Of a stretch of DNA of 36,641 bases, positions 2,124-31,318 are shown in pieces (the first letter of the stretch is position 1; each line of letters opens with the position of its first letter). The stretch is from IMG/VR virus record IMGVR_UViG_2877285697_000003, positions 1 to 36,641 of that record. The stretch is one strand, 5' to 3'. Below the pieces are notes generated by a model that searched no databases, had not been told where the DNA came from, and was given only the letters and a program-made list of their open reading frames with translations. A program made the position numbers and the translations under genes. Source of the stretch: a virus. Taxonomy: Duplodnaviria > Heunggongvirae > Uroviricota > Caudoviricetes.

Positions 2124-2195
2124 TGAAGTGGCACACTGAATTTGGCCACCTGAACAGAGGTGATATGCTCACCTCAGAACAACACAGGTGCTCCA

Positions 2196-3364
<1,169 letters not shown>

Positions 3365-5748: not shown

Positions 5749-6044
5749 ACTGTTTTCAGTTTGTGTGCGGAAGTGTTTTCGATAATCCGATTCAGCGCCT
5801 GATTATGTTGCGTGTTTGGATGTCGGGGTCTTCAGACGGGGAAGGTGAGAGAGTTATTGAGCACCAAGTGCTTGCCGATTTTTGTTGCTGTTCAAAACAA
5901 GCGATGTTCAGAGAAACCCTGGCCCTGGAAAGGGCGGGACATCTGCATATCCGAAAAATTGCAACGCTTACCATTGATGCAAAAGCCCGACTCCAGCCTG
6001 CCCGTGGTTACACAATTGTCATGCCGCGTAAGGAGGCTGTATGA
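5745..6044 (+). CDS. Hypothetical protein (99 aa, GTG start)
   Basis: GTG start overlapping the upstream stop; ATGA overlap with the next ORF. Confidence 0.4.
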   Translation: MNCFQFVCGSVFDNPIQRLIMLRVWMSGSSDGEGERVIEHQVLADFCCCSKQAMFRETLALERAGHLHIRKIATLTIDAKARLQPARGYTIVMPRKEAV

Positions 6045-6334
6045 GTCGTTATGCCCCCACACCGGAAGTTATGGCTATTGGTCAAATTAATATTTCCGGC
6101 AATGTCACACCGACAACCTGGTGGAAACATATCCAGCTACCCAGTGGGCGTCCGGATGCGACAGCCATTGCGCTGCTTTCAGAGATTGTTTACTGGTATC
6201 GCCCGACAGAAGTCAGGGATGAGCATACAGGGGCTTTACTGGGATATCGCAAGCGTTTTCAGGGTGACAAGCTGCAAAGAAGCTATCAGGCGTTTGCTGA
6301 GCAGTTTGGCTTTGGGAAAAGGGAAACCGCAGAT
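6041..6334 (+). pseudogene. Hypothetical gene, 3'-truncated by IS600 (stop codon supplied by the IS terminus)
   Basis: ORF runs straight into the IS600 end at 6335 (..GKRETAD then TGA from TGAGGTGTACTGG). Confidence 0.45.
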
Positions 6335-7365
6335 TGAGGTGTACTGGCAATAGCGGACACTACCATTTGTTCTTTTTTTAAGCAGCCATCTGATGGTATT
6401 TTTCCCTGAAGGCTGCCGGGGAGATATTCCCCAGACGAGAGTGACGACGCTGACGATTGTAGAAAATCTCAATGTATTCCCGTATTACTGAGATGGCTTC
6501 ATCCCGGTTATTAAAACGATAGTGGCTCAGGCTCTCATTTTTCAGCGTTCCCCAGAAGCTTTCCATCGGAGCGTTGTCGTAACAGTTACCTTTACGCGAC
6601 ATTGATGTTTTCAGACCAAACTGCTCCTGTATGACCCGGTAATCGTATGCGCAGTACTGTGAACCTCGATCAGAGTGGTGGATTAGCCCGGCAGGTGGGC
6701 GCTGGCTCCTGAGCGCCATAAACAGGGCTTTACCTGTCAGCTCTTTTGTCATGCGCTCTCCCATGGCGTAGCCGACAATTTCGCACGTATAAACATCTTT
6801 GATGCCAGCGAGGTACAACCATCCCTCCTGTGTGGCAACATACGTCAGGTCCGCCACCCAGACCTGATTTGGTGCTGTAGGAGCGAACGTCTGGTTCAGC
6901 AGATTTGGCGCAACTGGCAGATTGTGGTTCGGGTTCGTAGTCGCTCTGAACTTGCGTTTCTGCTTACAGCGTAGCCTTAGCTCCTTACGAAGACGTGCCA
7001 GTCGGTCACGACCAACGATGATGCCATTCTCTGCCAGCTCCGTCTGGAGCCGCCGGGTTCCATATGTTTCGCGAGTGCGGATATGTGCCACCTTAATCTC
7101 CAGTTTTAGCCGCTCATCACTTTGTTTTCTGTCTGAGGGTTCATGCTGTACCCAGTTGTAATAACCGCTCCTGGATACACCAAATACCTGACACATCGCT
7201 TCAATGGGAAATTGTTGTCGCCATTGTTCGATTAACGCGTATTTTTCAGCGACTCCTGTGCAAAATACGCTGTTGCTTTTTTTAATATATCTCGCTCAAG
7301 GCGAGCTTCATTTAACGCCTTACGCAGTTGCAGAATTTCAGATTCCAGTTCAGCCACCGTGCGGG
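6335..7365 (-). mobile_element. IS600 copy, 5'-truncated (about 1031 of 1264 bp; lacks IRL and first ~57 codons of orfA)
   Basis: Right terminus TGAGGTGTACTGGCAATAGCGG at 6335; identity to the complete copy (16287-17550) ends near 7365 inside orfA, where molR-like sequence begins. Confidence 0.85.
6378..7196 (-). CDS. IS600 orfB transposase (272 aa)
   Basis: Nearly identical to orfB of the complete IS600 at 16689-17507 (two substitutions); IS3-family catalytic core. Confidence 0.9.
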   Translation of the reverse strand: MCQVFGVSRSGYYNWVQHEPSDRKQSDERLKLEIKVAHIRTRETYGTRRLQTELAENGIIVGRDRLARLRKELRLRCKQKRKFRATTNPNHNLPVAPNLLNQTFAPTAPNQVWVADLTYVATQEGWLYLAGIKDVYTCEIVGYAMGERMTKELTGKALFMALRSQRPPAGLIHHSDRGSQYCAYDYRVIQEQFGLKTSMSRKGNCYDNAPMESFWGTLKNESLSHYRFNNRDEAISVIREYIEIFYNRQRRHSRLGNISPAAFREKYHQMAA

Positions 7366-8893
7366 AACGTGATCTGGCTCGCCAGTGGATTTTACAATGG
7401 CCGGAACATACGGCTAGTGCACTTATCCCTCTTGTCTTTACCAAACCCAGCGATAATAGCGAAGCCGCATTACTTGCCCTGCGTTTACTGTACGAACAGG
7501 GACATGGCGAATTGCTACAAACCGTGGCAAACCGCTGGCAGCGTACAGATGTATGGTCTGCCCTGGAGCAGTTGCTTAAACAGGGTCCAATGGACATTTA
7601 CCCGGCACGCATTCCAAAAGCCCCTGATTTCTGGCATCCGGCAATGTGGTCCAGGCCTTGACTTATCACTAATAATCAGCCTGTTACCGGTGACGCTCTG
7701 GAAATTATCGGCGAAATGCTGCGCTTTACCCAGGGGGGACGTTTTTATAGCGGGCTGGAACAACTGAAAACGTTCTGCCAGCCACAAACGCTGGCAGCTT
7801 TTGCCTGGGATCTCTTCACTGCGTGGCAACAAGCTGGTGCCCCCGCAAAAGACAACTGGGCATTTCTGGCGTTAAGTCTCTTTGGTGACGAAAGCACGGC
7901 ACGGGATCTGACGACACAGATCCTCGCCTGGCCACAAGAAGGCAAATCTGCCCGTGCTGTCAGCGGCCTGAACATCCTTACCCTGATGAATAATGATATG
8001 GCGCTGATACAGCTGCATCATATATCGCAACGGGCTAAATCCCGCCCCTTACGTGATAACGCGGCGGAATTTCTTCAGGTGGTCGCAGAAAATCGCGGGC
8101 TAAGCCAGGAAGAGCTAGCGGACAGATTAGTCCCAACCCTGGGCCTTGATGATCCGCAGGCGTTGAGTTTTGATTTTGGTCCCCGGCAGTTTACCGTTCG
8201 CTTCGATGAAAACCTCAACCCGGTTATCTTTGATCAGCAAAACGTTCGCCAGAAAAGCGTTCCCCGGTTGCGCGCCGATGACGATCAACTGAAAGCGCCC
8301 GAGGCACTGGCCCGACTAAAAGGGCTAAAAAAAGATGCTACTCAGGTGAGCAAAAACCTGCTCCCGCGTCTTGAAGCTGCCCTAGGTACCACCCGACGCT
8401 GGTCGCTGGCAGATTTTCATTCTCTGTTTGTTAATCATCCCTTTACCCGTCTGGTTACCCAGCGATTAATATGGGGGGGTTATCCGGCAAATGAACCGCG
8501 TTGTTTACTCAAAGCCTTTCGTGTGGCCGCAGAGGGGGAGTTCTGCAATGCGCAAGATGAGCCAATTGACCTGCCTGCGGACGCTCTGATTGGCATTGCC
8601 TACCCGTTAGAAATGACAGTAGAAATGCGCAGTGAATTTGCACAGCTTTTTGCCGATTACGAAATTATGCCGCCTTTTCGCCAGTTGTCGCGCCGCACGG
8701 TGCTGCTCACACCTGACGAGTCAACCAGTAACAGCCTGACTCGCTGGGAAGGTAAATCCGCTACCGTTGGGCAGCTTATGGGAATGCGATACAAAGGCTG
8801 GGAGTCAGGTTATGAGGACGCATTTGTCTATGACCTGGGTGAGTACCGGCTGGTCCTTAAGTTTTCACCCGGTTTTAACCACTACAATGTTGA
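7366..8893 (+). pseudogene. molR: molR/yehI-family (DUF4132-type) gene fragment: 5' part deleted at IS600, in-frame stop at 7659-7661, 3' end interrupted by IS1
   Basis: Two same-frame ORFs (7359-7661 and 7716-8915) separated by one stop codon; translation recalled as the large WGR/DUF4132 protein encoded next to metG in E. coli; the final codons MLPTY-stop come from the IS1 terminus. Confidence 0.6.
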
Positions 8894-9659
8894 GGTAATG
8901 CTGCCAACTTACTGATTTAGTGTATGATGGTGATTTTAAGGTGCTTGCGTGGCTTCCATTTCCATCAGATGTCCTTCCTGCTCCGCTACTGAAGGCGTGG
9001 TGCGTAACGGCAAAAGCACTGCCGGACATCAGCGCTATCTCTGCTCTCATTGCCAAAACATGGCAACTACAGTTCACTTACACCGCCTCTCAGCCCGGTA
9101 CGCACCAGAAAATCATTGATATGGCCATGAATGGCGTCGGATGTCGCGCCAGTGCACGCATTATGGGCGTTGGCCTCAACACGGTTTTACGTCACTTAAA
9201 AAACTCAGGCCGCAGTCGGTAACCTCGCGCATACAACCGGGCAGTGATGTGATTGTCTGCGCTGAAATGGACGAACAGTGGGGCTACGTCGGTGCTAAAT
9301 CACGTCAGCGCTGGCTGTTTTACGCGTATGACAGGATACGGAGGACGGTTGTGGCGCACGTCTTCGGTGAACGCACTCTGGCCACACTGGAGCGTCTTCT
9401 GAGCCTGCTGTCGGCCTTTGAGGTCGTGGTATGGATGACGGATGGCTGGCCGCTGTATGAATCACGCCTGAAGGGAAAGCTGCACGTTATCAGCAAGCGT
9501 TACACTCAGCGCATTGAGCGACATAATCTGAATCTGAGACAACATCTGGCAAGGCTGGGACGGAAGTCACTGTCGTTCTCAAAATCGGTGGAGCTGCATG
9601 ACAAGGTCATCGGGCATTATCTGAACATAAAACACTATCAGTAAGTTGGAGTCATTACC
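8894..9659 (+). mobile_element. IS1, full length but with a 2-bp deletion that frameshifts insA
   Basis: Ends GGTAATGCTGCCAACTTACTGAT.. and ..ATCAGTAAGTTGGAGTCATTACC; insA region TCTCATTGCC--AAAACATGG differs from canonical TCTCACTGCCGTAAAACATGG, so the InsA frame is broken; insB is intact. Confidence 0.9.
9141..9644 (+). CDS. insB: IS1 InsB
   Basis: 167-aa translation recognised as IS1 InsB (..[54 protein letters not shown]..). Confidence 0.9.
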
Positions 9660-9818
9660 TGAATAATCAACAGGTGCTTCTGGGTTACAGCTGGCTTGAC
9701 GATAAACTTGAGCTCTACCTCCTTAGCATCGGTCCACATGAAAATTTTTATACCGATCAGAAAAAACACCGAAAAGCTGATTTAAAACTCATCGGTTAGT
9801 CCTGACGTCATGCATACC

Positions 9819-9846
9819 AGCCCACGTAAACGCGTGGGCTTTTTCA
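9819..9846 (+). terminator. Rho-independent terminator-like hairpin (AGCCCACG taaa CGTGGGCT TTTT)
   Basis: Perfect 8-bp stem, 4-nt loop, followed by a T-run, about 150 bp upstream of the KilA-N gene. Confidence 0.5.
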
Positions 9847-9997
9847 TATCTGAATTTCACCGCGCACCGCAGCGCATGATAACCACCGAACCTGCCCCTT
9901 TGGAATGAGCCTTTGAGGATACCAGTTAGTGCTGGCGAGCCTCGGTGGGCTGGTTTCCTGTGCGGCAAAGGTTCATTTCAAAGAACAGGTATACGAC

Positions 9998-10495
9998 ATG
10001 AAATCATTAACCCTCTTCAATCAGCCAATCCGTATCGGTGAAGATGGCATGATCTGCCTCACTGATATGTGGAAAGCCAGTGGTAAAAGTGAATCTGAAT
10101 CTCCGTACCACTACCTGCGAAACAAGCAGACCAAAGAGTTCTTAGCCGAGCTGGAGAAAAACCACGAATCTGTGGTTTTTACTGAGCGCGGTGTACACGG
10201 TGAAACATATGGCGGGAAGTTTGTTGCTTATGATTATGCAGCATGGCTAAACCCCGGATTTAAATATGCAGCCTATAAAGTCCTGGATGACTACTTCACC
10301 GGAGAACTTCAGCATCGCAACAGCTTAAGTGCGCAGCTCAATATGAAGTGTCATGAGTTTGATCAGAAAAAAGATATGGCGAGCTTCTGTGGACAAGGGC
10401 TGGCGGCATGGCGCTATACGAAGCCAGTGTTGGTCGCTGAGATTAACTCCCTGGCTAACCAGCTGCAGATAACGATCCCCGGGCTTCCGGGATGA
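9998..10495 (+). CDS. KilA-N domain protein (phage antirepressor-like DNA-binding protein)
   Basis: Start chosen at ATG 9998 with upstream AGG; translation (..ICLTDMWKASGK.. GGKFVAYDYAAWLNPGFKYAAYKVLDDYF..) matches the KilA-N domain pattern. Confidence 0.7.
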   Translation: MKSLTLFNQPIRIGEDGMICLTDMWKASGKSESESPYHYLRNKQTKEFLAELEKNHESVVFTERGVHGETYGGKFVAYDYAAWLNPGFKYAAYKVLDDYFTGELQHRNSLSAQLNMKCHEFDQKKDMASFCGQGLAAWRYTKPVLVAEINSLANQLQITIPGLPG

Positions 10496-10749
10496 GTGAT
10501 CGTGTCATTGAATGCGCCTCCAGAGCGGGGCGCGACTTCTCAGAGTTCATGAAAGGCGAGAAGGGCATGATGGAAGCATTGGCCTCGGTGGATGAGTTTG
10601 GCGAGCAGCTGCGCCTCAACGGCTGTGTCAATCATCACTTTGTTAGCTACATGATGCGGAACTCGATCATGCAGGCATTCATGGACATGGCAAAAGCCGA
10701 GAGGAAAGAAGAGCGCCGGCGTAAGCGAGCGGAAGCAAAAGCGAAGTAG
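10492..10749 (+). CDS. Hypothetical 85-aa protein with basic C-terminal tail, translationally coupled to the KilA-N gene
   Basis: ATGA start/stop overlap with the upstream gene; C-terminus KAERKEERRRKRAEAKAK. Confidence 0.45.
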   Translation: MSDRVIECASRAGRDFSEFMKGEKGMMEALASVDEFGEQLRLNGCVNHHFVSYMMRNSIMQAFMDMAKAERKEERRRKRAEAKAK

Positions 10750-11164
10750 CCATTACAAAGCCCATCTACTGGTGGGCTTGATAATGGCTTATACCCTACA
10801 CGGGATAACTTAACTGATATCCCTTTTAACGGATAAAGGTATTCAAGCCTGACACATCATGCGCTGTATCGTCGCTGTATTCCCGCATTAACCATGACCG
10901 TAGCCCGACGGGGAACTCCTTCTGCGCGAGTGTGCGGGAATAATCAAAAACGATGCACACCGGGTTTTTACCGCGTTTATGGTTCGCGGGTTTGTCCCTC
11001 ATGCTCGCCAGTCCTGTGCGGGGGTGGAAGAAACAGGACACTTACACTGATTCTTGTGGGTACGATGCTATTCCTTTCTGGATTATCCCGATGTCATTCA
11101 TGCAGGGCGCTGTATCAGACGTTCGTCATGGCTGTCAGGCTGACGGGTCCTCCCGGTGGGGTGG

Positions 11165-11192
11165 CCTGCCACGGGGCGGGAGCGGCGCGGAA
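11165..11192. other. Candidate cos site (cosN-like GC-rich element) upstream of terS
   Basis: ACGGGGCGGGAGCGGCGCGG resembles the phage lambda cosN neighbourhood as recalled (ACGGGGCGGCGACCTCGCGGG), lies about 170-190 bp upstream of the terS start as in lambda, and is followed by a TTCGTCAT motif and a palindrome ACTGTAAT-N8-ATTACAGT (11234-11257). Confidence 0.4.
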
Positions 11193-11360
11193 AAAGGCTA
11201 GTTTTTGAAATTTCATTCGTCATCACCACTACTGTAATGTGTTGATATTACAGTGGTTTTATTTTTGTGGTGTCGATTTTGATTGTTTTTTTGTTCATCA
11301 CTAACACCGTTTGCCTAAAGTTGTTCGCAAGATGCATGTTTAAAACATTCTGGAGCGGGT

Positions 11361-11854
11361 ATGGATCGAGAGTTAAAAAATCTGACGCTGAATATCAGTC
11401 AACTGGCGGCACTGTCAGGTGTACATCGCCAGACTGCTGCGGCAAGGCTGCAAAATCTACCCGTTGCAGGGGGCATGAAAGCAACCTCAAGCTTTATCGG
11501 GTGGTTGATATTGTGTCGGCATTTCTGGCATTACCACCGCCGGTTGCAGAAGGCGAAATGGACGCGCATGAGCGCAAAGCCTGGTATCAGTCTGAACGTG
11601 AGCGTCTTAAGTTCGAACAGGAAACGGCACAACTCATTCCGGCCAGTGATGTCAGACGGGAGTTTGCCATCTGGGCAAAAGCGGTCGTGCAGGTGCTGGA
11701 GACATTACCGGATATTCTTGAACGTGACTGCGGTCTGCAGCCTGCCGCTGTGAGCCGTATTCAGTCCATTATTGATGATCTGCGCGATCAGATAGCCCTG
11801 CGGGTGACTGAAGCAGGTGCGGATGATGAGGAGGAATTACAGCAGGAGGAGTAA
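11361..11854 (+). pseudogene. Terminase small subunit (Nu1-like), frameshifted within a G-run near 11469-11477
   Basis: N-terminal HTH part (MDRELKNLTLNISQLAALSGVHRQTAAARLQNLPVAGG) is in one frame (ORF 11361-11753) and the remainder (HESNLKLYRVVDIV.. to stop at 11854) in another (ORF 11267-11854); junction at GCAGGGGGCATG. Confidence 0.7.
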
Positions 11855-13956
11855 TGCTGAATCAGGAAACCGCAAAGGCAGCACGAACCGATTCAGGTTA
11901 TATCCTTCGCGCACCAAGACGAATGCGGGTTGCTGATGCCGTTGCTCAGTATATGCGGGTGCCCATGGGGGCAGGGAACTCAGTCCCGTGGGATCCGCTG
12001 GTGGCACCGTATGTTATTGAGCCGATGAACTGCCTGGCCTCGCGTGAATACGACGCAGTGATATTTGTTGGCCCGGCACGAACCGGCAAGACTATCGGCC
12101 TGATTGACGGCTGGGTGATTTACAACGTGATTTGCGATCCTGCTGATATGCTGATCATTCAGATGACGGAGGAAAAAGCCCGCGAACACTCCAAAAAACG
12201 ACTCGCCAGAACGTTTCGCGTCAGCCCGGAAGTGGTCAGTCGCCTGAGTCCGAACAAAAATGACAACAACGTTTATGACAGAACATTCCTTGCTGGCAAC
12301 TACCTGAAAATCGGCTGGCCGTCAGTCAATATCATGTCCTCATCAGATTATAAATGCGTCGCGCTGACGGATTATGACCGTTTTCCGGAAGATATTGATG
12401 GTGAGGGGGATGCTTTCTCTCTTGCCTCAAAACGTACCACAACATTTATGTCCAGTGGTATGACGCTGGTGGAGAGTTCCCCCGGCAGGGATGTGAAGGA
12501 TGTGAAATGGCGACGGACTTCACCGCATGAGGCTCCACCAACCACGGGGATACTGTCGCTCTATAACCGTGGCGATCGCCGTCGCTGGTACTGGCCCTGT
12601 CCACACTGTGGTGAGTATTTTCAGCCCTGCGGCGATGTGGTTGCTGGTTTCCGTGATATTGCCGATCCCGTGCTGGCAAGTGAGGCGGCTTATATTCAGT
12701 GTCCTTCCTGTTCAGGACGGATTATGCCTGAACAAAAACGTGAGCTGAACGGACGTGGGGTCTGGTTGCGGGATGGTGAATCCATCAATGCGGATGGCAG
12801 TCGTTATGGTGATCCCAGGCGTTCACGTATTGCGTCATTCTGGATGGAGGGTCCGGCAGCTGCTTACCAGACACTCTCGCAACTCGTTTACAAACTGCTT
12901 ACTGCAGAACAGGAATACGAGACAACCGGAAGTGAAGAAACACTCAGGGCGGTTATCAACACCGACTGGGGATTACCTTATCTTCCCCGCGCCAGCATGG
13001 AGCAACGAAAAAGTGAACTGCTTGAGCAGCGGGCAGAGCCTGTTCCTCCCCGCTGCGTGCCGGATGGTGTTAATTTCCTGGCGGCGACAGTGGATGTGCA
13101 GGCGGGACGTCATCGCCGTTTTGTGGTTCAGGTAACGGGTTATGGTTGCCGTGGCGAACGCTGGATTATTGATCGTTACAACATCACGCAGTCATTGCGT
13201 TGTGACAACAACGGAGAAAGCCTGCGAATTGATCCTGCTGGTTATCCTGAGGACTGGGATGTCCTGCTGACGGATGTTTTTCATAAAAGCTGGCCGTTGG
13301 CCTCCGATCCTTCTCAACAAATGCGACTGATGGCAATGGCGGTGGACTCCGGCGGTGAAGACGGGGTCACTGATAATGCCTATAAATTCTGGCGTCGTTG
13401 CCGTCGTGATGGCCTTGGTAAACGTATTTACCTGTTTAAGGGCGACAGCATCCGACGCGCAAAACTGATCACCCGTACATTCCCTGATAACACCGGACGA
13501 ACGGGCCGACGGGCGCAGGCCGCAGGTGATGTGCCGCTCTGGCTTCTTCAGACGGATGCCCTGAAAGACCGGGTGAATAACGCGTTATGGCGTGACTCGC
13601 CAGGTCCCGGCTATGTGCATTTCCCTGACTGGCTGGGGAGCTGGTTTTACGACGAACTGACGTATGAAGAGCGGAGCAGTGACGGGAAATGGAGTAAGCC
13701 GGGTCGAGGTGCCAACGAAGCTTTTGACCTGATGGTGTATGCCGAGGCTCTGGTCATTCTGCATGGTTACGAGAAAATTCAGTGGCCGGATGCGCCGGAA
13801 TGGGCATGCAGGGAAACCTGGCTGGAGCGTGTCAGGGACGATGCCGGACTGTCAGCCTCGCCGGAGCCGATATCCGTGTCCGTTAAAAAAAAGAAACGAA
13901 AAAAAGTGGTGCCTGATGAAGAAAACCCATGGGTGACTTCCGGAGGATGGTTGTGA
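11854..13956 (+). CDS. Terminase large subunit (lambda gpA family), 700 aa
   Basis: ATG overlaps the terS stop (TAATG); translation has the gpA-family ATPase region (..VIFVGPARTGKT..) and length typical of lambda-type TerL. Confidence 0.9.
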   Translation: MLNQETAKAARTDSGYILRAPRRMRVADAVAQYMRVPMGAGNSVPWDPLVAPYVIEPMNCLASREYDAVIFVGPARTGKTIGLIDGWVIYNVICDPADMLIIQMTEEKAREHSKKRLARTFRVSPEVVSRLSPNKNDNNVYDRTFLAGNYLKIGWPSVNIMSSSDYKCVALTDYDRFPEDIDGEGDAFSLASKRTTTFMSSGMTLVESSPGRDVKDVKWRRTSPHEAPPTTGILSLYNRGDRRRWYWPCPHCGEYFQPCGDVVAGFRDIADPVLASEAAYIQCPSCSGRIMPEQKRELNGRGVWLRDGESINADGSRYGDPRRSRIASFWMEGPAAAYQTLSQLVYKLLTAEQEYETTGSEETLRAVINTDWGLPYLPRASMEQRKSELLEQRAEPVPPRCVPDGVNFLAATVDVQAGRHRRFVVQVTGYGCRGERWIIDRYNITQSLRCDNNGESLRIDPAGYPEDWDVLLTDVFHKSWPLASDPSQQMRLMAMAVDSGGEDGVTDNAYKFWRRCRRDGLGKRIYLFKGDSIRRAKLITRTFPDNTGRTGRRAQAAGDVPLWLLQTDALKDRVNNALWRDSPGPGYVHFPDWLGSWFYDELTYEERSSDGKWSKPGRGANEAFDLMVYAEALVILHGYEKIQWPDAPEWACRETWLERVRDDAGLSASPEPISVSVKKKKRKKVVPDEENPWVTSGGWL

Positions 13957-14165
13957 ACCAGAATGATATTGAAGCCATGATCCATCGTTATATCAATGCG
14001 GAAATGGCAGTGCTGGACGGAAAGTCCATTACTTTTAATGGTCAGCAGATGACCATGGAAAACTTATCCGAGATCCGACAGGGGCGGCAGGAGTGGGAAC
14101 GTCGCCTTGCGACTCTGGCTGCGCGGCGACGGGGGAAGCCGGGCTATAAACTGGCGAGGTTCTGA
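13953..14165 (+). CDS. Head-tail joining protein, gpW-like
   Basis: Small ORF between terL and portal, position as in lambda; GTG at 13953 preceded by GGAGG; stop overlaps the portal ATG (TGATG). Confidence 0.6.
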   Translation: MNQNDIEAMIHRYINAEMAVLDGKSITFNGQQMTMENLSEIRQGRQEWERRLATLAARRRGKPGYKLARF

Positions 14166-15670
14166 TGGCAATTCTTGATGATGTTATTGGTGTTTTTTCA
14201 CCTGGCTGGAAAGCTGCGAGATTGCGCTCAAGGGCATTAATTCGTGCCTATGAGGCAGTGAAGCCTACTCGTACACATAAAGCCCGGCGGGAAAATCGTT
14301 CTGCCGACCAGCTCAGTAAGTACGGTGCAGTTTCCCTGCGGGAGCAGGCTCGTTTTCTGGACATCAATCATGATCTGGTAATCGGTGTTTTCGACAAACT
14401 TGAGGAACGGGTGATTGGTGCAAAAGGGATCGTTGTCGAACCCCAGCCATTACTGAAGAACGGTGATATAGCCACAGAGCTGGCAATGATTCTCCGTCGC
14501 TTGTGGGTGGAATGGTCTGTCAGTCCGGATGTGACCGGGCAGTATACGCGCCCCATGCTCGAGCGTCTGCTGCTGCGTACCTGGTTACGTGATGGTGAAG
14601 TGTTTGCCCAGCTGGTTCGTGGTGCCGGCGGCGGGCTGGTGCGGACTGCTGGCGTGCCTTTCTGGATCGAGGCAATGGAGCCGGATTTTGTGCCCATGCT
14701 CAGTGATGAATCTGTGGGGTTGAATCAGGGTGTTTTTCTGGATGACTGGGGCAGACCGAAAAAATACCTGGTTTATAAAAATCATCCGACTACCGGGCGG
14801 CTGAGTGATACCAAAGAGATCGTTGCCGAAAATATGGTGCATCTGAAATTTACCCGTCGTCTGCATCAGACGCGTGGTACATCCATGTTGTCAGGTGTGC
14901 TGATGCGGATCAGTGCGCTTAAGGAATATGAAGATGCTGAGCTGACAGCGGCGCGTGTTGCTGCGGCTCTGGGGCTGTATATCCGTAAAGGAGATGGGCA
15001 GGATTATGAAGACGCCACGATAAATAAAGATAATGACCGGGAACTGCATATCACCCCTGGCATTATTTATGACGATTTGCGCAAGGGGGAAGATATTGGC
15101 ATGGTCAAATCTGATCGGCCCAATCCTAACCTTGAAACTTTTCGTAACGGGCAGCTGCGTGCGGTGGCCGCAGGCAGTCGTATGAGTTTTTCCAGTGCGG
15201 CGCGCAATTACAACGGTACCTACAGCGCTCAGCGACAGGAGCTGGTCGAGTCCACTGACGGCTATCTGATCCTGCAGGACTGCTTTATTGGCGCTGTAAC
15301 CCGTCCCGTGTACCGGACGTGGCTGAACATGGTGGTAGCAGCAGGTCTGCTGAAAATCCCGTCGGATGTGGATATGAAAACGTTGTGTAACGCAACATAT
15401 TCCGGTCCGGTCATGCCGTGGATTGATCCGGTTAAGGAGGCTGAGGCCTGGAAAATCCAGATTCGCGGTGGAGCGGCGACAGAATCAGACTGGGTGCGAG
15501 CAGGTGGGCGTAATCCGGATGATGTCAAACGTCGGCGCAAGGCTGAAATTGATGAAAACCGCAAGCTGGGTCTGATATTTGATACCGATCCGGCCAGTAA
15601 TAAAGGAGGCAGCAGTGTCGCAACGAAACGACTGGAGCCGCAGCACACCGACGGCCAGTCCGAAGAATAA
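14165..15670 (+). CDS. Portal protein (lambda gpB family), 501 aa
   Basis: Position after terL and gpW, size and sequence consistent with lambda-family portal proteins. Confidence 0.85.
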   Translation: MAILDDVIGVFSPGWKAARLRSRALIRAYEAVKPTRTHKARRENRSADQLSKYGAVSLREQARFLDINHDLVIGVFDKLEERVIGAKGIVVEPQPLLKNGDIATELAMILRRLWVEWSVSPDVTGQYTRPMLERLLLRTWLRDGEVFAQLVRGAGGGLVRTAGVPFWIEAMEPDFVPMLSDESVGLNQGVFLDDWGRPKKYLVYKNHPTTGRLSDTKEIVAENMVHLKFTRRLHQTRGTSMLSGVLMRISALKEYEDAELTAARVAAALGLYIRKGDGQDYEDATINKDNDRELHITPGIIYDDLRKGEDIGMVKSDRPNPNLETFRNGQLRAVAAGSRMSFSSAARNYNGTYSAQRQELVESTDGYLILQDCFIGAVTRPVYRTWLNMVVAAGLLKIPSDVDMKTLCNATYSGPVMPWIDPVKEAEAWKIQIRGGAATESDWVRAGGRNPDDVKRRRKAEIDENRKLGLIFDTDPASNKGGSSVATKRLEPQHTDGQSEE

Positions 15671-15683
15671 TTCCTGGTTCAGG

Positions 15684-16289
15684 ATGCAGGCAGGTCACCA
15701 GAGTGACGCGGATATTTATATTTATGACGAGATTGGTTTCTGGGGTGTTACGGCGAAGCAGTTTATCAGTGATCTGAATGCACTGGGCGATATCACCCAC
15801 ATTAATCTCCATATCAATTCACCGGGTGGCGATGTCTTTGAAGGCATCGCCATTTTTAATGCACTGAAAACACATGGTGCGTCCATTACCGTTTATGTCG
15901 ACGGTGTGGCGGCATCAATGGCGTCGGTCATTGCGATGGTGGGAAACCCGGTCATTATGCCGGAAAACACCTTCATGATGATTCATAAACCATTTGGCTT
16001 TACGGGCGGTGATGCGGAGGACATGCGCACCTATGCCGACCTGCTCGATAAAGTTGAGGCGGTTCTGTTACCCGCTTATGCACAGAAAACCGGGAAAACC
16101 ATCGATGAAGTTGCTGCCATGCTGGCGGATGAGACCTGGATGTCCGGTGCCGAATGTCTGGCACATGGATTTGCTGATCAGGTGACGCCAGCCGTTAAGG
16201 CAATGGCATGTATTCAGTCAAAACGTACAGAGGAATTTAAAAAGATGCCGGAATCCATTCGAAACATGATTACTCCGCCACGCAACTGA
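15684..16289 (+). CDS. ClpP/S14-family prohead protease; stop codon provided by the IS600 terminus
   Basis: Translation (..HINSPGGDVFEGIAIFNALK.. SMASVIAMVG.. MIHKP..) has ClpP-like Ser/His motifs; start set at ATG 15684 just after the portal stop (ORF track start 15579 overlaps portal); TGA at 16287-16289 is the first 3 nt of the IS600 IRL. Confidence 0.8.
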   Translation: MQAGHQSDADIYIYDEIGFWGVTAKQFISDLNALGDITHINLHINSPGGDVFEGIAIFNALKTHGASITVYVDGVAASMASVIAMVGNPVIMPENTFMMIHKPFGFTGGDAEDMRTYADLLDKVEAVLLPAYAQKTGKTIDEVAAMLADETWMSGAECLAHGFADQVTPAVKAMACIQSKRTEEFKKMPESIRNMITPPRN

Positions 16290-16350
16290 GGTAGCCTGAG
16301 TTTAACGGACACTCCTTCCTGAAATAGAATGGCATCAGAAGGAGCTAATA

Positions 16351-16653
16351 ATGAGCAGAAAAACCCAACGTTACTCTAAAGAGTTCAAAGCCGAAGCTGT
16401 CAGAACGGTTCTTGAAAATCAACTTTCGATCAGTGAAGGCGCTTCCCGATTATCCCTTCCTGAAGGCACTTTAGGACAATGGGTTACCGCCGCCAGAAAA
16501 GGGCTCGGTACTCCTGGCTCCCGCACGGTGGCTGAACTGGAATCTGAAATTCTGCAACTGCGTAAGGCGTTAAATGAAGCTCGCCTTGAGCGAGATATAT
16601 TAAAAAAAGCAACAGCGTATTTTGCACAGGAGTCGCTGAAAAATACGCGTTAA
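16351..16653 (+). CDS. IS600 OrfA
   Basis: 100-aa ORF MSRKTQRYSKEFKAEAVRTV.. with HTH and leucine-zipper-like C-terminus, as in IS3-family OrfA proteins. Confidence 0.9.
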   Translation: MSRKTQRYSKEFKAEAVRTVLENQLSISEGASRLSLPEGTLGQWVTAARKGLGTPGSRTVAELESEILQLRKALNEARLERDILKKATAYFAQESLKNTR

Positions 16654-16688
16654 TCGAACAATGGCGACAACAATTTCCCATTGAAGCG

Positions 16689-17507
16689 ATGTGTCAGGTA
16701 TTTGGTGTATCCAGGAGCGGTTATTACAACTGGGTACAGCATGAACCCTCAGACAGAAAACAAAGTGATGAGCGGCTAAAACTGGAGATTAAGGTGGCAC
16801 ATATCCGCACTCGCGAAACATATGGAACCCGGCGGCTCCAGACGGAGCTGGCAGAGAATGGCATCATCGTTGGTCGTGACCGACTGGCACGTCTTCGTAA
16901 GGAGCTAAGGCTACGCTGTAAGCAGAAACGCAAGTTCAGAGCGACTACGAACCCGAACCACAATCTGCCAGTTGCGCCAAATCTGCTGAACCAGACGTTC
17001 GCTCCTACAGCACCAAATCAGGTCTGGGTGGCGGACCTGACGTATGTTGCCACACAGGAGGGATGGTTGTACCTCGCTGGCATCAAAGATGTTTATACGT
17101 GCGAAATTGTCGGCTACGCCATGGGAGAGCGCATGACAAAAGAGCTGACAGGTAAAGCCCTGTTTATGGCGCTCAGGAGCCAGCGCCCACCTGCCGGGCT
17201 AATCCACCACTCTGATCGAGGTTCACAGTACTGCGCATACGATTACCGGGTCATACAGGAGCAGTCTGGTCTGAAAACATCAATGTCGCGTAAAGGTAAC
17301 TGTTACGGCAACGCTCCGATGGAAAGCTTCTGGGGAACGCTGAAAAATGAGAGCCTGAGCCACTATCGTTTTAATAACCGGGATGAAGCCATCTCAGTAA
17401 TACGGGAATACATTGAGATTTTCTACAATCGTCAGCGTCGTCACTCTCGTCTGGGGAATATCTCCCCGGCAGCCTTCAGGGAAAAATATCATCAGATGGC
17501 TGCTTAA
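16689..17507 (+). CDS. IS600 OrfB transposase
   Basis: 272-aa ORF; differs from the copy at 6378-7196 by two substitutions (F->S and D->G in ..VIQEQSGLKTSMSRKGNCYGNAPME..). Confidence 0.9.
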   Translation: MCQVFGVSRSGYYNWVQHEPSDRKQSDERLKLEIKVAHIRTRETYGTRRLQTELAENGIIVGRDRLARLRKELRLRCKQKRKFRATTNPNHNLPVAPNLLNQTFAPTAPNQVWVADLTYVATQEGWLYLAGIKDVYTCEIVGYAMGERMTKELTGKALFMALRSQRPPAGLIHHSDRGSQYCAYDYRVIQEQSGLKTSMSRKGNCYGNAPMESFWGTLKNESLSHYRFNNRDEAISVIREYIEIFYNRQRRHSRLGNISPAAFREKYHQMAA

Positions 17508-17550
17508 AAAAAGAACAAATGGTAGTGTCCGCTATTGCCAGTACACCTCA

Positions 17551-17905: not shown

Positions 17906-19939
17906 TTATTTCACCTGATGGCCTGGTTTAGCACCAGCATCCGGGCTTAACAGGAAGATATCTTTCCCGCCAGGACCAGCAGCCATTACCATGCCTTCGG
18001 AGATACCAAAGCGCATTTTACGCGGTGCCAGGTTGGCCACCATAATGGTGTGACGCCCGATCAGTGCCTGCGGATCCGGGTAGGCAGAACGAATACCGGA
18101 GAAGACATTGCGTTTTTCACCGCCGAGATCCAGTGTCAGGCGCAGCAGTTTGTCAGAACCTTCAACAAACTCTGCGTTTTCGATCAGCGCCACGCGCAGG
18201 TCAACTTTTGCGAAGTCGTCAAAGGTGATGGTTTCCTGAATCGGATCATCTGCCAGTGGGCCAGTAACTGGCGCGGCAGCTGCTTTCACTTCTTCTTTAG
18301 ACGCTTCCACCAGTGCTTCAACCTGCTTCATATCGATGCGGTTATACAGCGCTTTGAACGGATTCACTTTGTGGCCCAGCAGCGGTTGCTGGATACCATC
18401 CCAGGTCAGTTCTGTATTGAGGAATGCTTCTGCGCGCTCGGTCAGTTTCGGCAGTACCGGCTTCAGGTAAGTCATCAGCACGCGGAACAGGTTTATGCCC
18501 ATTGAGCAAATTGCCTGCAGGTCGGCATCGCGGCCTTCCTGTTTTGCCACCACCCACGGAGCCTGCTCGTCGACATAGCGGTTAGCCAGATCAGCCAGCG
18601 CCATGATTTCGCGCACTGCTTTACCAAATTCGCGGCTTTCCCACGCTTCACCAATCACTTCAGCGGCATCAGTGAAGGTTTTGTACAACTGCGGGTCAGC
18701 CAGTTCGCTTGCCAGCACGCCGTCAAAACGCTTGTTGATAAAGCCCGCATTACGAGAGGCCAGGTTAACCACTTTGTTCACGATATCGGCATTCACACGC
18801 TGAACGAAATCCTCCAGGTTGAGATCGATATCATCAATGCGCGAAGAGAGTTTCGTAGTGTAGTAGTAACGCAGGCTGTCAGCGTCAAAATGATTCAGCC
18901 AGGTGCTGGCTTTAATAAAGGTGCCGCGAGACTTGGACATCTTTGCGCCGTTCACCGTCACATAGCCATGAACAAACAGGTTGGTCGGCTTGCGGAAGTT
19001 GCTGCCTTCCAGCATGGCAGGCCAGAACAGGCTGTGGAAGTAAACAATATCTTTACCGATGAAGTGGTACAGCTCGGCGGTGGAGTCTTTCTTCCAGTAT
19101 TCATCGAAGCTTACGCTGTCGCCGCGCTTGTCGCACAGATTCTTGAAAGAACCCATGTAGCCAATCGGTGCGTCCAGCCAGACGTAGAAATATTTGCCCG
19201 GCGCGTTCGGAATTTCAAAACCAAAGTATGGCGCGTCGCGGGAGATATCCCACTGTTGCAGGCCGGATTCAAACCACTCCTGCATTTTATTTGCCACCTG
19301 CTCCTGCAACGCACCGCTGCGGGTCCATGCCTGCAACATTTCGCTGAAAGAGGGCAGATCAAAGAAGAAGTGTTCAGAATCACGCATTACCGGCGTAGCG
19401 CCAGAAACCACCGATTTCGGCTCGATCAATTCAGTCGGGCTGTAGGTCGCGCCGCAGACTTCGCAGTTATCGCCGTATTGATCCGGGGATTTACATTTCG
19501 GGCAGGTGCCTTTCACAAAACGGTCCGGCAGGAACATGCCTTTTTCCGGATCGTACAGCTGAGAGATGGTGCGGTTTTTAATAAAACCGTTCTCTTTCAG
19601 GCGAGAGTAGATAAGTTCTGACAACTGGCGGTTCTCTTCGCTGTGCGTCGAGTGATAGTTGTCATAGCTGATGTTAAAGCCTGCGAAATCAGTCTGATGC
19701 TCCTGACTCATTTCGCCAATCATCTGCTCCGGGGTGATACCAAGCTGCTGAGCTTTCAGCATGATCGGTGTACCGTGGGCATCGTCGGCGCAGATGAAGT
19801 TGACCTCGTGGCCGCGCATTCGCTGGTAACGGACCCAGACATCAGCCTGGATGTGCTCCAGCATATGGCCGAGGTGGATTGAGCCGTTAGCGTACGGCAG
19901 TGCGCACGTCACCAGAATTTTCTTCGCGACTTGAGTCAT
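17906..19939 (-). CDS. metG: Methionine--tRNA ligase
   Basis: Translation matches MetG over its full length (HIGH-type ..[14 protein letters not shown].. and KMSKS motifs, C-terminal tRNA-binding domain); start placed at [10 protein letters not shown]. Confidence 0.97.
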
Positions 19940-20070
19940 AGTAGGCATTACTTCTTAATAGTGAAAAGGGGTTAGATAGTACCAAATGGGAAAATGTTAA
20001 GTAAGTACTTCTCTATATTCTTCAGGTAAACTATCAGCTGATGGTTTATCTATACAAAAAAGGAGTCGGG

Positions 20071-21180
20071 ATGAACGAACAATCCCAGGCCAAATCACCA
20101 GAAGCCTTGCGCGCAATGGTCGCCGGGACACTGGCCAATTTTCAGCACCCAACCCTGAAGCATAACCTCACCACGCTGAAAGCGTTGCACCATGTCGCCT
20201 GGATGGACGACACGTTGCATGTGGAACTGGTTATGCCATTCGTCTGGCATAGCGCGTTTGAAGAGTTAAAAGAGCAATGTAGCGCCGAACTGCTGCGTAT
20301 CACCGGGGCGAAAGCTATCGACTGGAAACTGTCGCACAATATCGCCACCTTAAAACGCGTGAAGAATCAGCCGGGTATTAATGGTGTGAAGAACATCATT
20401 GCGGTCAGTTCCGGTAAAGGCGGCGTGGGTAAATCCTCCACGGCGGTAAACCTGGCGCTGGCACTGGCGGCGGAAGGGGCGAAAGTCGGCATTCTGGACG
20501 CCGATATCTACGGCCCATCAATTCCCACCATGCTGGGCGCAGAAAATCAGCGTCCAACTTCGCCGGACGGTACCCATATGGCACCGATTATGTCTCATGG
20601 CCTGGCAACCAATTCAATTGGTTATCTGGTCACTGACGACAATGCGATGGTGTGGCGTGGACCGATGGCGAGCAAGGCGTTAATGCAGATGTTGCAGGAA
20701 ACCTTGTGGCCGGATCTCGACTATCTGGTGCTTGATATGCCGCCAGGCACCGGTGACATTCAATTGACGCTGGCGCAAAACATTCCAGTAACTGGTGCAG
20801 TCGTGGTCACCACCCCGCAGGACATCGCGTTGATCGATGCGAAAAAAGGCATTGTGATGTTCGAGAAAGTCGAGGTTCCGGTGCTTGGTATTGTCGAGAA
20901 CATGAGTGTGCATATTTGCAGTAACTGTGGTCACCATGAACCGATTTTCGGTACCGGTGGTGCAGAGAAACTGGCTGAAAAATACCACACACAGCTGCTG
21001 GGGCAGATGCCGTTACACATCTCCTTACGTGAGGATCTCGATAAAGGCACGCCAACGGTTATCAGCCGTCCGGAGAGCGAATTTACCGCTATCTACCGCC
21101 AGCTGGCTGACCGCGTTGCAGCTCAGCTCTACTGGCAGGGTGAAGTCATTCCAGGCGAGATTTCCTTCCGCGCGGTCTAA
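20071..21180 (+). CDS. apbC: Iron-sulfur cluster carrier ATPase ApbC (Mrp)
   Basis: Translation from MNEQSQAK.. with Walker A (SGKGGVGKSS) and CxxC (CSNCGH); divergent from metG as in E. coli. Confidence 0.95.
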   Translation: MNEQSQAKSPEALRAMVAGTLANFQHPTLKHNLTTLKALHHVAWMDDTLHVELVMPFVWHSAFEELKEQCSAELLRITGAKAIDWKLSHNIATLKRVKNQPGINGVKNIIAVSSGKGGVGKSSTAVNLALALAAEGAKVGILDADIYGPSIPTMLGAENQRPTSPDGTHMAPIMSHGLATNSIGYLVTDDNAMVWRGPMASKALMQMLQETLWPDLDYLVLDMPPGTGDIQLTLAQNIPVTGAVVVTTPQDIALIDAKKGIVMFEKVEVPVLGIVENMSVHICSNCGHHEPIFGTGGAEKLAEKYHTQLLGQMPLHISLREDLDKGTPTVISRPESEFTAIYRQLADRVAAQLYWQGEVIPGEISFRAV

Positions 21181-21440: not shown

Positions 21441-21748
21441 CAATGGGTAATGACTCCAACTTACTGATAGTGTTTTATGTTCAGATAATGCCCGATGACC
21501 TTGTCATGCAGCTCCACCGATTTTGAGAACGACAGTGACTTCCGTCCCAGCCTTGCCAGATGTTGTCTCAGATTCAGATTATGTCGCTCAATGCGCTGAG
21601 TGTAACGCTTGCTGATAACGTGCAGCTTTCCCTTCAGGCGTGATTCATACAGCGGCCAGCCATCCGTCATCCATACCACGACCTCAAAGGCCGACAGCAG
21701 GCTCAGAAGACGCTCCAGTGTGGCCAGAGTGCGTTCACCGAAGACGTG
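21441..21748 (-). mobile_element. IS1 fragment (right-end ~308 bp with the 3' part of insB), cut by IS911
   Basis: Begins with IS1 terminus GGTAATGACTCCAACTTACTGATAGTG; ORF 21461-21763 encodes the C-terminal 95 residues of InsB; homology ends exactly where IS911 starts. Confidence 0.85.
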
Positions 21749-21756
21749 TGAAGTGG

Positions 21757-22925
<1,169 letters not shown>

Positions 22926-23282
22926 TGGAGCACCTGTGTTGTTCTGAGGTGAGCATATCACCTCTGTTCAGGTGGCCAAATTCAGTGTGCCACTTCACCT
23001 CCGCAAATAACGGATGGCGTAGTTTTACACTGAGAAATGAAAGGGATTTGAAAAGAAAAAAACGCAAAAGCGGGCGAAACGATATATACAGTAAGGAAAG
23101 CACTCTATCCAACAAACCACCCACAGTTAATCGGAATAAAAGCAGAGTGCTTATGAATGATCGCACGCCCGAAGGTTAGTATTTCTGCACAGCAATTTTG
23201 CAAAAAAAGGCGATCATTCATAACTTAAACGTCTTTCAGTCACTCCGGGATTTCCCATCATCGCAGACTGAAAGACTCTGAC

Positions 23283-26675: not shown

Positions 26676-27969
26676 CTGAGGAATCCCCAGAAAACAAGAC
26701 AGGCATAGTGAGATGTGATCTAATTGATTGTGCTAACAATTTCAAGGAGATCACCACTATGCCTGCACGTTCATTATGCCAAAATTTCCTTAACAACATA
26801 CTGGCCCCTTTGCATCTTTACCGTCAAAAATCACTGATTGACGCAACTAATGCTGTAATAAATGGCGCTTCCCTCACACTTACCAGTATCGGGCGTCATT
26901 TAACCGGTACGGCATCAGTTAAAAACAAAATAAAACGGGTGGATCGACTGTTGGGGAATCGACATTTGCAAAATGAGGTTTCCACCATTTTTCAGCGAAT
27001 TACCCAAAAGATTACGCGGGGAATGTCTCGTGTTGTGATACTCATTGACTGGAGTGCTTATCATGCCTCTCGTTTTCAGCTTTTGCGGGCAAGCCTGGCA
27101 TGTGACGGGCGTTCTTTACCGTTGATGAGTTGTGTCGTTCCATCATCACAGACAGCGAATGCAGATGTACATGAGCGTTTTCTGGAATCGCTTGCTGAGT
27201 GCTTTTCCCCCGGGACTGATGTCATTGTTATTACAGATGCCGGTTTTCAGGGGCGATGGTTCCAACAGCTCCGCTCCCGTGGCTGGACCTATATTTGCCG
27301 GGTACTGGGCAATCATTATTACAATGTTGGTAATGGCTGGGAAAAGGTGTCGGACTCAGGCACAAAAGCATCAACGACAGCAATTTATTTAGGTGAAGGC
27401 CTGCTGGGTCGAGATAAAAATGCACAACATGAAGGGCATTTTTATCTTTATAAAAGTAAGCCTAAAGGTCGTAGATTTAAACGCTCGAAGGAAAGAGCAA
27501 CCAGACCATCGGTGACGGCTAAAGCTCGTACTGCCGGGAAATCACCATGGTTTATTTTCACAAACAGTACTGAGTTCTCGCCAAAACAGGTAATGAAATT
27601 ATACAGACGTAGAATGCAAATTGAGCAAAATTTCAGGGATGAAAAAAATCCTCGCTGGGGATTTGGACTACGGTTTGGTGCCAGTCATTCATCCGGGCGG
27701 GTCACGGTATTGAGTCTGAGCGCAACATTAGCCAGTATCATTATGTGGTTAAGCGGTTTCAGCCTGGAAAACAAAGGGATACATCATAAATATCAGGCAA
27801 ATACAGTGAAGCACAGGCGAGTCATCTCGTTATTAAAACTGGCGGAGAATGTGATTCGACATTCTCCACTCATACTAAACACACTGTCACTTGACGCAGG
27901 GCTGAACGTTCTACAGCAACGGTATACCAATATGATAATGGTTTACTAAATTTTCTGGGGATCCCTCAG
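26676..27969 (+). mobile_element. IS4-family insertion sequence, IS10-like, about 1294 bp
   Basis: Terminal inverted repeats CTGAGGAATCCCCAGAAAA (26676-26694) and TTTTCTGGGGATCCCTCAG (27951-27969), similar to IS10 ends; flanking 9-mers are not a direct repeat. Confidence 0.8.
26759..27949 (+). CDS. IS4-family (IS10-like) DDE transposase
   Basis: Translation shares recalled IS10 transposase segments (..[18 protein letters not shown]..) and the IS4-family YREK signature ([15 protein letters not shown]); ORF track start 26708 is an alternative. Confidence 0.85.
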
Positions 27970-30588: not shown

Positions 30589-30607
30589 ATTTTATAACCC
30601 AGATACG

Positions 30608-30633
30608 GGCACCAGAAATGGTGCCTTTTTTAT
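30608..30633 (+). terminator. Rho-independent terminator after J
   Basis: GGCACC agaaat GGTGCC followed by TTTTTTATT, 20 bp after the J stop. Confidence 0.55.
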
Positions 30634-30655
30634 TGCAGAAAAGCGAGAGGTAATT

Positions 30656-31255
30656 ATGCGTAAAGTTTGTGCAGCCATTTTGTCCGCAGCCATCTGTCTG
30701 GCTGTATCCGGTGCGCCTGCATGGGCGTCTGAACATCAGTCCACGCTGAGCGCCGGGTATCTTCAGCCCCATACTGATATGCCAGGCAGCGATGACCTGA
30801 AGGGCATTAACGTGAAATACCGTTATGAGTTTACGGACACGCTGGGGCTGGTGACGTCATTCAGCTATGCCAACGCTGAAGATGAGCAAAAAACGCATTA
30901 CAGCGATACCCGCTGGCATGAGGATTCCGTGCGTAACCGCTGGTTCAGCGTGATGGCGGGGCCGTCTGTGCGCGTGAATGAATGGTTCAGCGCGTATGCG
31001 ATGGCGGGCGTGGCTTACAGCCGTGTGTCGACCTTCTCCGGGGATTATCTCCGCGTAACTGACAACAAGGGGAAAACGCACGATGTGCTGACCGGGAGTG
31101 ATGACGGTCGCCACAGCAACACGTCTCTGGCGTGGGGAGCTGGCGTGCAGTTTAACCCGACCGAATCCGTGGCCGTTGACGTCGCTTATGAAGGCTCCGG
31201 CAGCGGTGACTGGCGTACCAACAGTTTCATCGTGGGTGTCGGTTATAAATTCTGA
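30656..31255 (+). CDS. lom: Lom-like outer membrane protein (Ail/Lom/OmpX family)
   Basis: 199-aa ORF with signal peptide (MRKVCAAILSAAICLAVSGAPAWA), beta-barrel-like alternating pattern and C-terminal ..GVGYKF; located after J as in lambda. Confidence 0.85.
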   Translation: MRKVCAAILSAAICLAVSGAPAWASEHQSTLSAGYLQPHTDMPGSDDLKGINVKYRYEFTDTLGLVTSFSYANAEDEQKTHYSDTRWHEDSVRNRWFSVMAGPSVRVNEWFSAYAMAGVAYSRVSTFSGDYLRVTDNKGKTHDVLTGSDDGRHSNTSLAWGAGVQFNPTESVAVDVAYEGSGSGDWRTNSFIVGVGYKF

Positions 31256-31280
31256 TTAGCCAGGTAACACAGTGTTATGA

Positions 31281-31306
31281 CAGCCCGCCGTTTCAGGCGG
31301 GCTTTT
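31281..31306 (+). terminator. Rho-independent terminator after lom
   Basis: AGCCCGCC gtttca GGCGGGCT followed by TTTTTGTG. Confidence 0.55.
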
Positions 31307-31318
31307 TGTGGGGTGAAT

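Follow-up and report, generated by a model that had tools for sequence, protein, structure and literature searches.

The closest described counterparts of the gene studied here are the small terminase subunits (TerS) of the DUF1441 family from mEp460/Gifsy-2-type phages. mEp460 gp01 and phi458 Orf25 belong to the same family and occupy the same position, and their genes overlap a gpA-type large terminase gene (terL) in the same manner, through the sequence TAATG. The mentions of DUF1441 found in the literature are incidental. For lambda Nu1, the N-terminal residues 1–98 are present in structure 6HN7, a complex with RppC (PMC6739421).

We analyzed a stretch of 36,641 nucleotides of viral DNA (IMG/VR record IMGVR_UViG_2877285697_000003), here called the window. 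It contains a lambdoid prophage remnant with a head module of the mEp460/Gifsy-2 type, located in Shigella dysenteriae CP026827.1. The terS gene of the window shares 99% nucleotide identity with terS of mEp460, phi458, and vB_EcoS-569R4. The difference from these phages is that the window reading frame is split by a missing G in a homopolymer, which has six G residues (G6) in all phage records checked, including those of the functional phages mEp460 and mEp460_4F5. Based on comparison with sister genomes we show that the missing G is private to CP026827.1, and we consider it probable (about 0.6) that it is an assembly artefact. The features of the region are summarized in Table 1.

Table 1. 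Features of the window around the split terS gene, with positions in the window and the basis of each assignment.
Feature	Position	Strand	Basis or remark
Integrase	75-1361
IS3-family copies	about 1430-2150, 2160-3364, 6041-7196, 21743-22997
Non-coding region upstream of terS	11170..11257	+	GC-rich block CACGGGGCGGGAGCGGCGCGG, then hairpin 11228-11257
terS pseudogene, DUF1441 family small terminase subunit	11361..11854	+	PF07278 6.6e-41, PHROG 141 1.3e-73 (repaired protein)
Frame-1 ORF, 130 aa	11361..11753	+	38 authentic residues (beta1, two HTH helices), then 92 out-of-frame residues
G5 run, one-base deletion site (G6 in relatives)	11469..11473	+	Encodes Gly37-Gly38, conserved P-x-G-G wing motif
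Frame-3 terS remainder, His39-Glu164 and stop	11474..11854	+	Second wing strand, helix 3, long helices, acidic tail
terL, lambda gpA-type, 700 aa, intact	11854..13956	+	PF05876, PF20454; length equals mEp460 terL
Small 70-aa head gene, position of lambda W	13953..14165	+	Gene calls in two relatives (L149, L007)
Portal, lambda gpB family, 501 aa, intact	14165..15670	+	PF05136 1.4e-79
5' stump (224 aa) of ClpP-like prohead protease/major capsid fusion	15615..16289	+	CLP_protease domain alone
IS600 ending the prophage head module	16287..17550	+	99.8% identical to annotated IS600 in FDAARGOS_944 (L004); IS3-family transposase
Host metG	17906-19948	minus	MetG by NCBIfam
Host apbC	20041-21180		ApbC by NCBIfam

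Structure of the terS locus

A first-pass annotation of the window had described a terminase small subunit gene whose reading frame switches in a G-run at about 11469–11477. The frame switch was confirmed at this place and results from a deletion of one nucleotide in a run that has five G residues (G5) in the window, where positions 11466–11477 read GCAGGGGGCATG. Frame 1 opens with an ATG preceded by GGAG and translates as MDRELKNLTLNISQLAALSGVHRQTAAARLQNLPVAGG, and the out-of-frame extension that follows these authentic residues ends at a stop codon at 11751–11753. The rest of TerS is carried in frame 3, starting with HESNLKLYRVVD and reading HESNLKLYRVVDIVSAF...DDEEELQQEE up to the TAA at 11852–11854, which overlaps the ATG of terL (TAATG). 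An alignment with intact terS genes, which the annotation had proposed, was made with two E. coli prophages and phage mEp460. All three have GCAGGGGGGCAT; the expected sequence is thus G6, and the window is one G short. With the G put back, terS becomes a single ORF of 164 codons, and a database entry with exactly this sequence is named 'DUF1441 family protein [Shigella dysenteriae]'.

In place of one uninterrupted ORF of ~160–170 aa, the window contains the 130-aa frame-1 ORF and the frame-3 remainder, and terS is a pseudogene as recorded. The gene call of the source record in frame 3 comprises a fragment of 98 aa only, starting at 11558. In the G5 allele, an ATG further upstream, at 11336, opens an ORF of 172 aa in frame with the C-terminal part of terS. 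The exact 130-aa and 172-aa products of the window gave no record in an exact-product look-up; PGAP assigns no protein to pseudogenes, and the caller of the source record took the 98-aa fragment.

The change from G6 to G5 is an ordinary one-base deletion in the terS gene of the record. Translation from the normal start would retain residues 1–38, with the first beta-strand and the two HTH helices, and would end 100 nt short of terL, so that the product would be without its wing, helix 3, its long helices, and its C-terminal part. A functional TerS is not expected without the wing, helix 3, and everything downstream; by analogy with lambda Nu1, from which the roles of the lost parts are taken, the frameshift would thus abolish TerS function. 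The lesion as such is of an ordinary and already understood kind, a one-base homopolymer deletion, whether real or artefactual.

Another homopolymer of terS, close to the start of the gene, also varies, in the viable phage mEp460 and together with a compensating change. In mEp460 (NC_019716.1, L003 1–120 aligned to window 11336–11385), the canonical start codon is changed from ATG to ACG and an A6 run is shortened to A5. The mEp460 TerS is annotated as a protein of 172 aa from the upstream ATG equivalent to window 11336; it reads MFKTFWSGYGSRVKN and then joins the normal frame.

This annotation bears on the possibility that a TerS variant devoid of the HTH is translated from the ATG at 11336 in the window and keeps some function, for example TerL binding. 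The 172-aa ORF does exist in the G5 allele and includes the last 126 residues of TerS in frame, and the same 172-aa product has been predicted by gene callers elsewhere (the P0044 cluster). The annotated mEp460 protein also starts at this ATG, but there a different deletion, in the A-run, keeps the HTH in frame. However, no Shine-Dalgarno-like sequence precedes 11336, whereas GGAG precedes the normal start. Its first 38 residues, read out of frame, would put junk in place of the DNA-binding domain, and such a protein would have no capsid or tail to serve, as the prophage lacks these genes. We regard a functional variant of this kind as extremely improbable.

Upstream of terS, a hairpin with a 13-bp stem and a T-tail is located between the GC-rich block and the gene, in what would be the region equivalent to cosB. 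The linear record of mEp460_4F5 starts at CCACGGGGCGGGAGCG, equivalent to about position 11170 of the window. Measured from this record start, terS lies 189 nt from the left end, comparable to lambda nu1 at nt 191, and the GC-rich block near 11170 may represent the cos end. A non-coding T-run at 11286–11292 is T7 in the window and in its S. dysenteriae sisters, and T6 in most other relatives, including FDAARGOS_943, the FDAARGOS_944 copy L004, L142, and L148. As T7 is common to a lineage, this is a real length polymorphism.

Identity of the small terminase subunit

The repaired TerS matched the Pfam family DUF1441 (PF07278) with 140.1 bits, against a cut-off of 35.1, and covered 146 of the 147 profile positions, so that the family HMM is matched end to end. 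It also matched PHROG 141, annotated as 'terminase small subunit'. The gene lies directly upstream of a gpA-type terL, to which it is coupled by the overlap of its stop codon with the terL start, and the adjoining TerL has GpA_ATPase and GpA_nuclease domains. The earlier assignment as a terminase small subunit gene therefore holds, and terS can be placed in the DUF1441 family. In a set of 29 diverse homologues all sequences are single ORFs, and the glycine corresponding to G38 is invariant.

The annotation had further called the protein Nu1-like and had placed an HTH in its N-terminus. At the sequence level, the repaired TerS gave no Pfam match to Phage_Nu1 (PF07471) at E≤1, BLASTP against lambda Nu1 returned a nonsignificant E of 20, and a sequence search of the PDB gave no match. 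An hhalign comparison of the profile of the 29 homologues with Nu1 aligned residues 9–53 to Nu1 residues 2–48 over 45 columns (E 0.0022, probability 13%), and in this alignment the Gly-Gly encoded by the G-run falls on the wing GGG of Nu1. An AF2 model of the repaired TerS (mean pLDDT 80.9) predicts a beta-helix-helix-wing-beta-helix arrangement at residues 9–56 (E9–11, H12–19, and H23–30), followed by long helices. In a Foldseek search of the PDB with this model the top match was 6HN7_B, that is, lambda TerS 1–98 (probability 0.99, E 0.045), with no match reaching E≤0.001; the matches after 6HN7_B are MerR-family winged-HTH proteins. An N-terminal HTH, predicted to be of the winged type, is thus supported by the model and by its top structural match. 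The term Nu1-like is borne out as a distant resemblance in fold and architecture but not as membership of a sequence family. We therefore consider Nu1-like a reasonable functional analogy, with membership of the Nu1 family not established. The results lend modest additional support to the view that DUF1441 proteins are Nu1-like small terminases with a MerR-type winged HTH.

Alleles of the G-run and origin of the missing base

The alleles of the G-run were counted by exact-word searches with queries of 40–42 nt, each with a 28-nt seed forced across the run. In complete E. coli genomes, G6 was found in 934 places (882 genomes) and G5 in six places (two genomes), while no G7 was found at the terS run; the length changes seen there in complete genomes are thus deletions only. 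The same type of search in IMG/VR viral contigs gave at least 120 matches for G6 and two for G5. A G5 30-mer had no matches in GTDB species representatives and none in JGI metagenome contigs. The normal state is clearly G6 with one ORF.

Frameshifted alleles nevertheless occur outside the window. G5 recurs in three phage backgrounds, represented by the window, the FDAARGOS_944/L016 type, and the CRE10/L017 type. Products of the G5 type are present in about 11 other database entries and products of the G7 type in two. The P0044 cluster, with its 172-aa product of the G5 type, has 11 members, and P0040 represents the G7 type. The homologue list also contains many other singleton TerS sequences that are frameshifted, fused, or truncated (P0119, P0027, P0016, P0072, P0077, P0060, and P0110). 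These breaks occur at various positions; broken TerS copies are a frequent kind of database noise or decay, with no particular tie to the G-run.

The recurrence of G5 in different phage backgrounds could point to a used state of the gene, in which ribosomes shifting by −1, or slippage during transcription, allow expression of the G5 allele, or in which the run acts as a phase-variable switch of TerS. A −1 shift after GGC would indeed restore the terS frame exactly. On the other hand, the two-frame arrangement is not conserved, as seen from the 934 G6 and six G5 places and the absence of G7 in complete E. coli genomes, and the functional phage records checked all have G6. The sequence A-GGG-GGC is not a slippery heptamer of the X-XXY-YYZ type, and the 86 nt downstream of the run fold no better than shuffled sequences (z = −0.15). 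A tract of 5–6 nt is, moreover, short for a contingency locus in a mismatch repair-proficient enterobacterium. Expression of the G5 allele by any of these routes is therefore highly unlikely. Programmed −1 frameshifting was rejected for want of a slippery heptamer, a downstream structure, and conservation, and phase variation was rejected on the allele counts. The wider proposal that the G6 run is a hot spot for switching packaging on and off in widespread lambdoid prophages, or is rescued by low-level −1 slippage, is equally doubtful; if true, G5 alleles would represent a recurrent and biologically used state and not noise. Even when recoding, a switch, and the upstream start are taken together, we find them very unlikely to account for the G5 allele.

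The comparison with sister records locates the deletion in a single genome. Window positions 8854–16956 match CP026827.1 855230–863332 exactly (GCA_002949935.1, labelled Shigella dysenteriae), and a second stretch of CP026827.1 is 100% identical to window 14715–36106. An identical TerL is encoded by seven contigs, with G5 in CP026827.1 only. The records with identical TerL and G6 are CP119450.1, ERR5984648 (a contig present in six samples), GCA_053979215.1, and ERR2287282, and in total G6 is present in at least 10 sister samples with an otherwise identical background. ERR5984648 derives from the S. dysenteriae 8 strain UE9-86, France 1986 (PMC8795385 supplement). Over 20,495 bp, the window differs from CP119450.1 by the missing G and by two substitutions in an IS copy (2585 and 2906). 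Compared with three drafts of the Illumina era over 5.4–6.7 kb, the missing G is the sole difference. The deletion is thus private to CP026827.1.

The most probable explanation for the private G5 is an assembly artefact, in which a G homopolymer would have been undercalled in a long-read (PacBio) consensus while the DNA of the strain would have G6. In PMC10132075, CP026832, located five accessions away, is cited as a PacBio sequence from a CDC set of 59 historical Shigella strains. Judging from this accession block, CP026827.1 is probably a PacBio-only assembly. The pattern of differences from the sisters also favors an artefact. At the mutation rates of E. coli, an indel in one given G6 run is expected far less often than a base substitution anywhere within 19 kb. 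A single indel unaccompanied by substitutions across about 19 kb of unique sequence therefore does not show the ratio expected of real divergence.

Similar changes are found in the two other complete genomes with G5 at this run, both of which look like consensus errors. E. coli CRE10 (NZ_CP034404.1, L005) differs from its nearest relative, an IMG/VR contig (L043), by no substitutions and two G6 to G5 deletions in 6.5 kb, one in terS (about 12024) and one in the protease-capsid gene (about 17474). Both genes are annotated as frameshifted pseudogenes, and both changes are probably assembly errors. In FDAARGOS_944 (NZ_CP065613.1), G5 is present at five of the five places that match the 40-mer. 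The two copies examined (L004 11973 and L147 16494) differ by 38 substitutions in 7.4 kb and yet both have G5, and one of them has further deletions in terL and the portal gene (A5 to A4, A8 to A7, and C4 to C3). This pattern suggests systematic undercalling of homopolymers or an artefact of polishing across repeats. The FDAARGOS_944 genome looks Shigella-like, with IS600 and many phage pseudogenes. An IMG/VR contig of the CRE10 type (L017) combines G5 with two G5 to G4 deletions in terL.

Against an artefact, the sister genome has the same length at all 26 other homopolymers of at least six bases in 20.5 kb, among them a G7, a further G6, an A8, and a T8, and the CP026827.1 assembly is therefore not generally poor at homopolymers. 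No excess of indels was observed at other loci of CP026827.1, and a split gene elsewhere in the comparison was caused by a substitution and not by an indel.

This agreement is also in favor of the second explanation, that replication slippage in the strain removed one G from G6 as neutral decay of a prophage already killed by IS600. The prophage region is heavily degraded: it contains an IS4 and four copies of the IS3 family, of which two are IS600, its protease-capsid and J genes are truncated, and DnaC is reduced to a fragment. In a dead prophage the lesion meets no selection against it. Shigella genomes are known to accumulate real pseudogenes. Frameshifted alleles at the same run in unrelated backgrounds (the P0044 cluster and the G7-type P0040) make it a plausible site of real slippage, although the platforms behind these entries are not given. 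Slippage in the strain is, on the other hand, opposed by the restriction of G5 to a single record, as opposed to G6 in at least 10 sister samples whose background is otherwise the same, by the lack of an accompanying substitution in about 19 kb, and by the other G5 cases examined, which look like consensus errors. A genuine mutation is thus a serious but less probable explanation, somewhat short of an even chance. A homopolymer sequencing error, mentioned in the annotation as the alternative to a real frameshift, is on this evidence at least as likely as a real mutation.

The head module and comparison with known systems

The large terminase and portal genes downstream of terS are intact, and the 70-aa gene between them had no family match above threshold. 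The protease, which had also been regarded as intact, is not. In intact relatives the fusion gene encodes 675 aa with the domains CLP_protease and Phage_capsid_4, whereas similarity of the window to these relatives stops at 16286. The junction with IS600 is at 16286/16287, and the insertion sequence cuts the fusion to 224 aa. No capsid end and no tail genes follow IS600 in the prophage, and the host genes metG and apbC come next. A second prophage fragment is located beyond these two genes and consists of a DnaC stump, DnaB, IS4, a J gene lacking the first ~295 residues, lom, a tail fibre gene, and ipaH. The position of host metG and apbC between the prophage stump and the second fragment suggests an IS-mediated rearrangement or deletion. 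The IpaH gene at 33334–34977 confirms the Shigella background. With disrupted modules and IS elements at the breakpoints, the element is a defective (cryptic) prophage of the kind found in Shigella.

The module comprising IS4, the 5'-truncated J, lom, the tail fibre gene, and ipaH (window 26708–34977) occurs twice in CP026827.1. The two copies are located in 864370–886964 (L151) and 1132193–1154787 (L152) and encode an identical J-fragment protein of 864 aa, which corresponds to TipJ residues 296–1163 and is the product of a 5'-truncated gene. The second copy retains the upstream part of J and other tail genes, and its IpaH is shorter (374 aa). The exact J-fragment protein was found in CP026827.1 only, both times, and the sister comparison covers up to 21.8 kb.

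As the protease-capsid gene is cut by IS600, there is no otherwise functional packaging module for the frameshift to disable. The capsid and tail genes are already lost to IS600, and the terS lesion is therefore without consequence, whether real or not; its biological weight is very small, since neither capsids nor tails could be made by this prophage even with an intact terS. The description of the element as a decaying prophage is supported by IS600 and by the missing modules. The same dead remnant is present with G6 in sister S. dysenteriae records, however, and the terS lesion is therefore not a feature of the decay of the lineage.

Compared with lambda Nu1, the terS product of the window would share an N-terminal MerR-like winged HTH followed by long helices, as predicted by the model, and the gene likewise lies ~190 nt from what may be the left end and is followed directly by a gpA-type TerL gene, whereas the protein belongs to another sequence family. 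With respect to the lesion, the closest parallels are the genes annotated by PGAP as 'DUF1441 family protein, frameshifted' in FDAARGOS_944 and CRE10, which have the same G6 to G5 change at the same site. They differ from the window by further homopolymer deletions nearby, of which there are none in the 20.5 kb of the window compared. A one-base frameshift at a G/C homopolymer, if it occurs in a single long-read assembly only, calls for confirmation by reads before it is taken as pseudogenisation or prophage decay. The window differs from the residual homopolymer deletions of long-read-only assemblies in that its other long runs are correct and its platform is deduced from the accession block. 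It resembles them in the loss of a single base from a G/C run of six, in a change private to one record, and in sister short-read assemblies that have the longer run.
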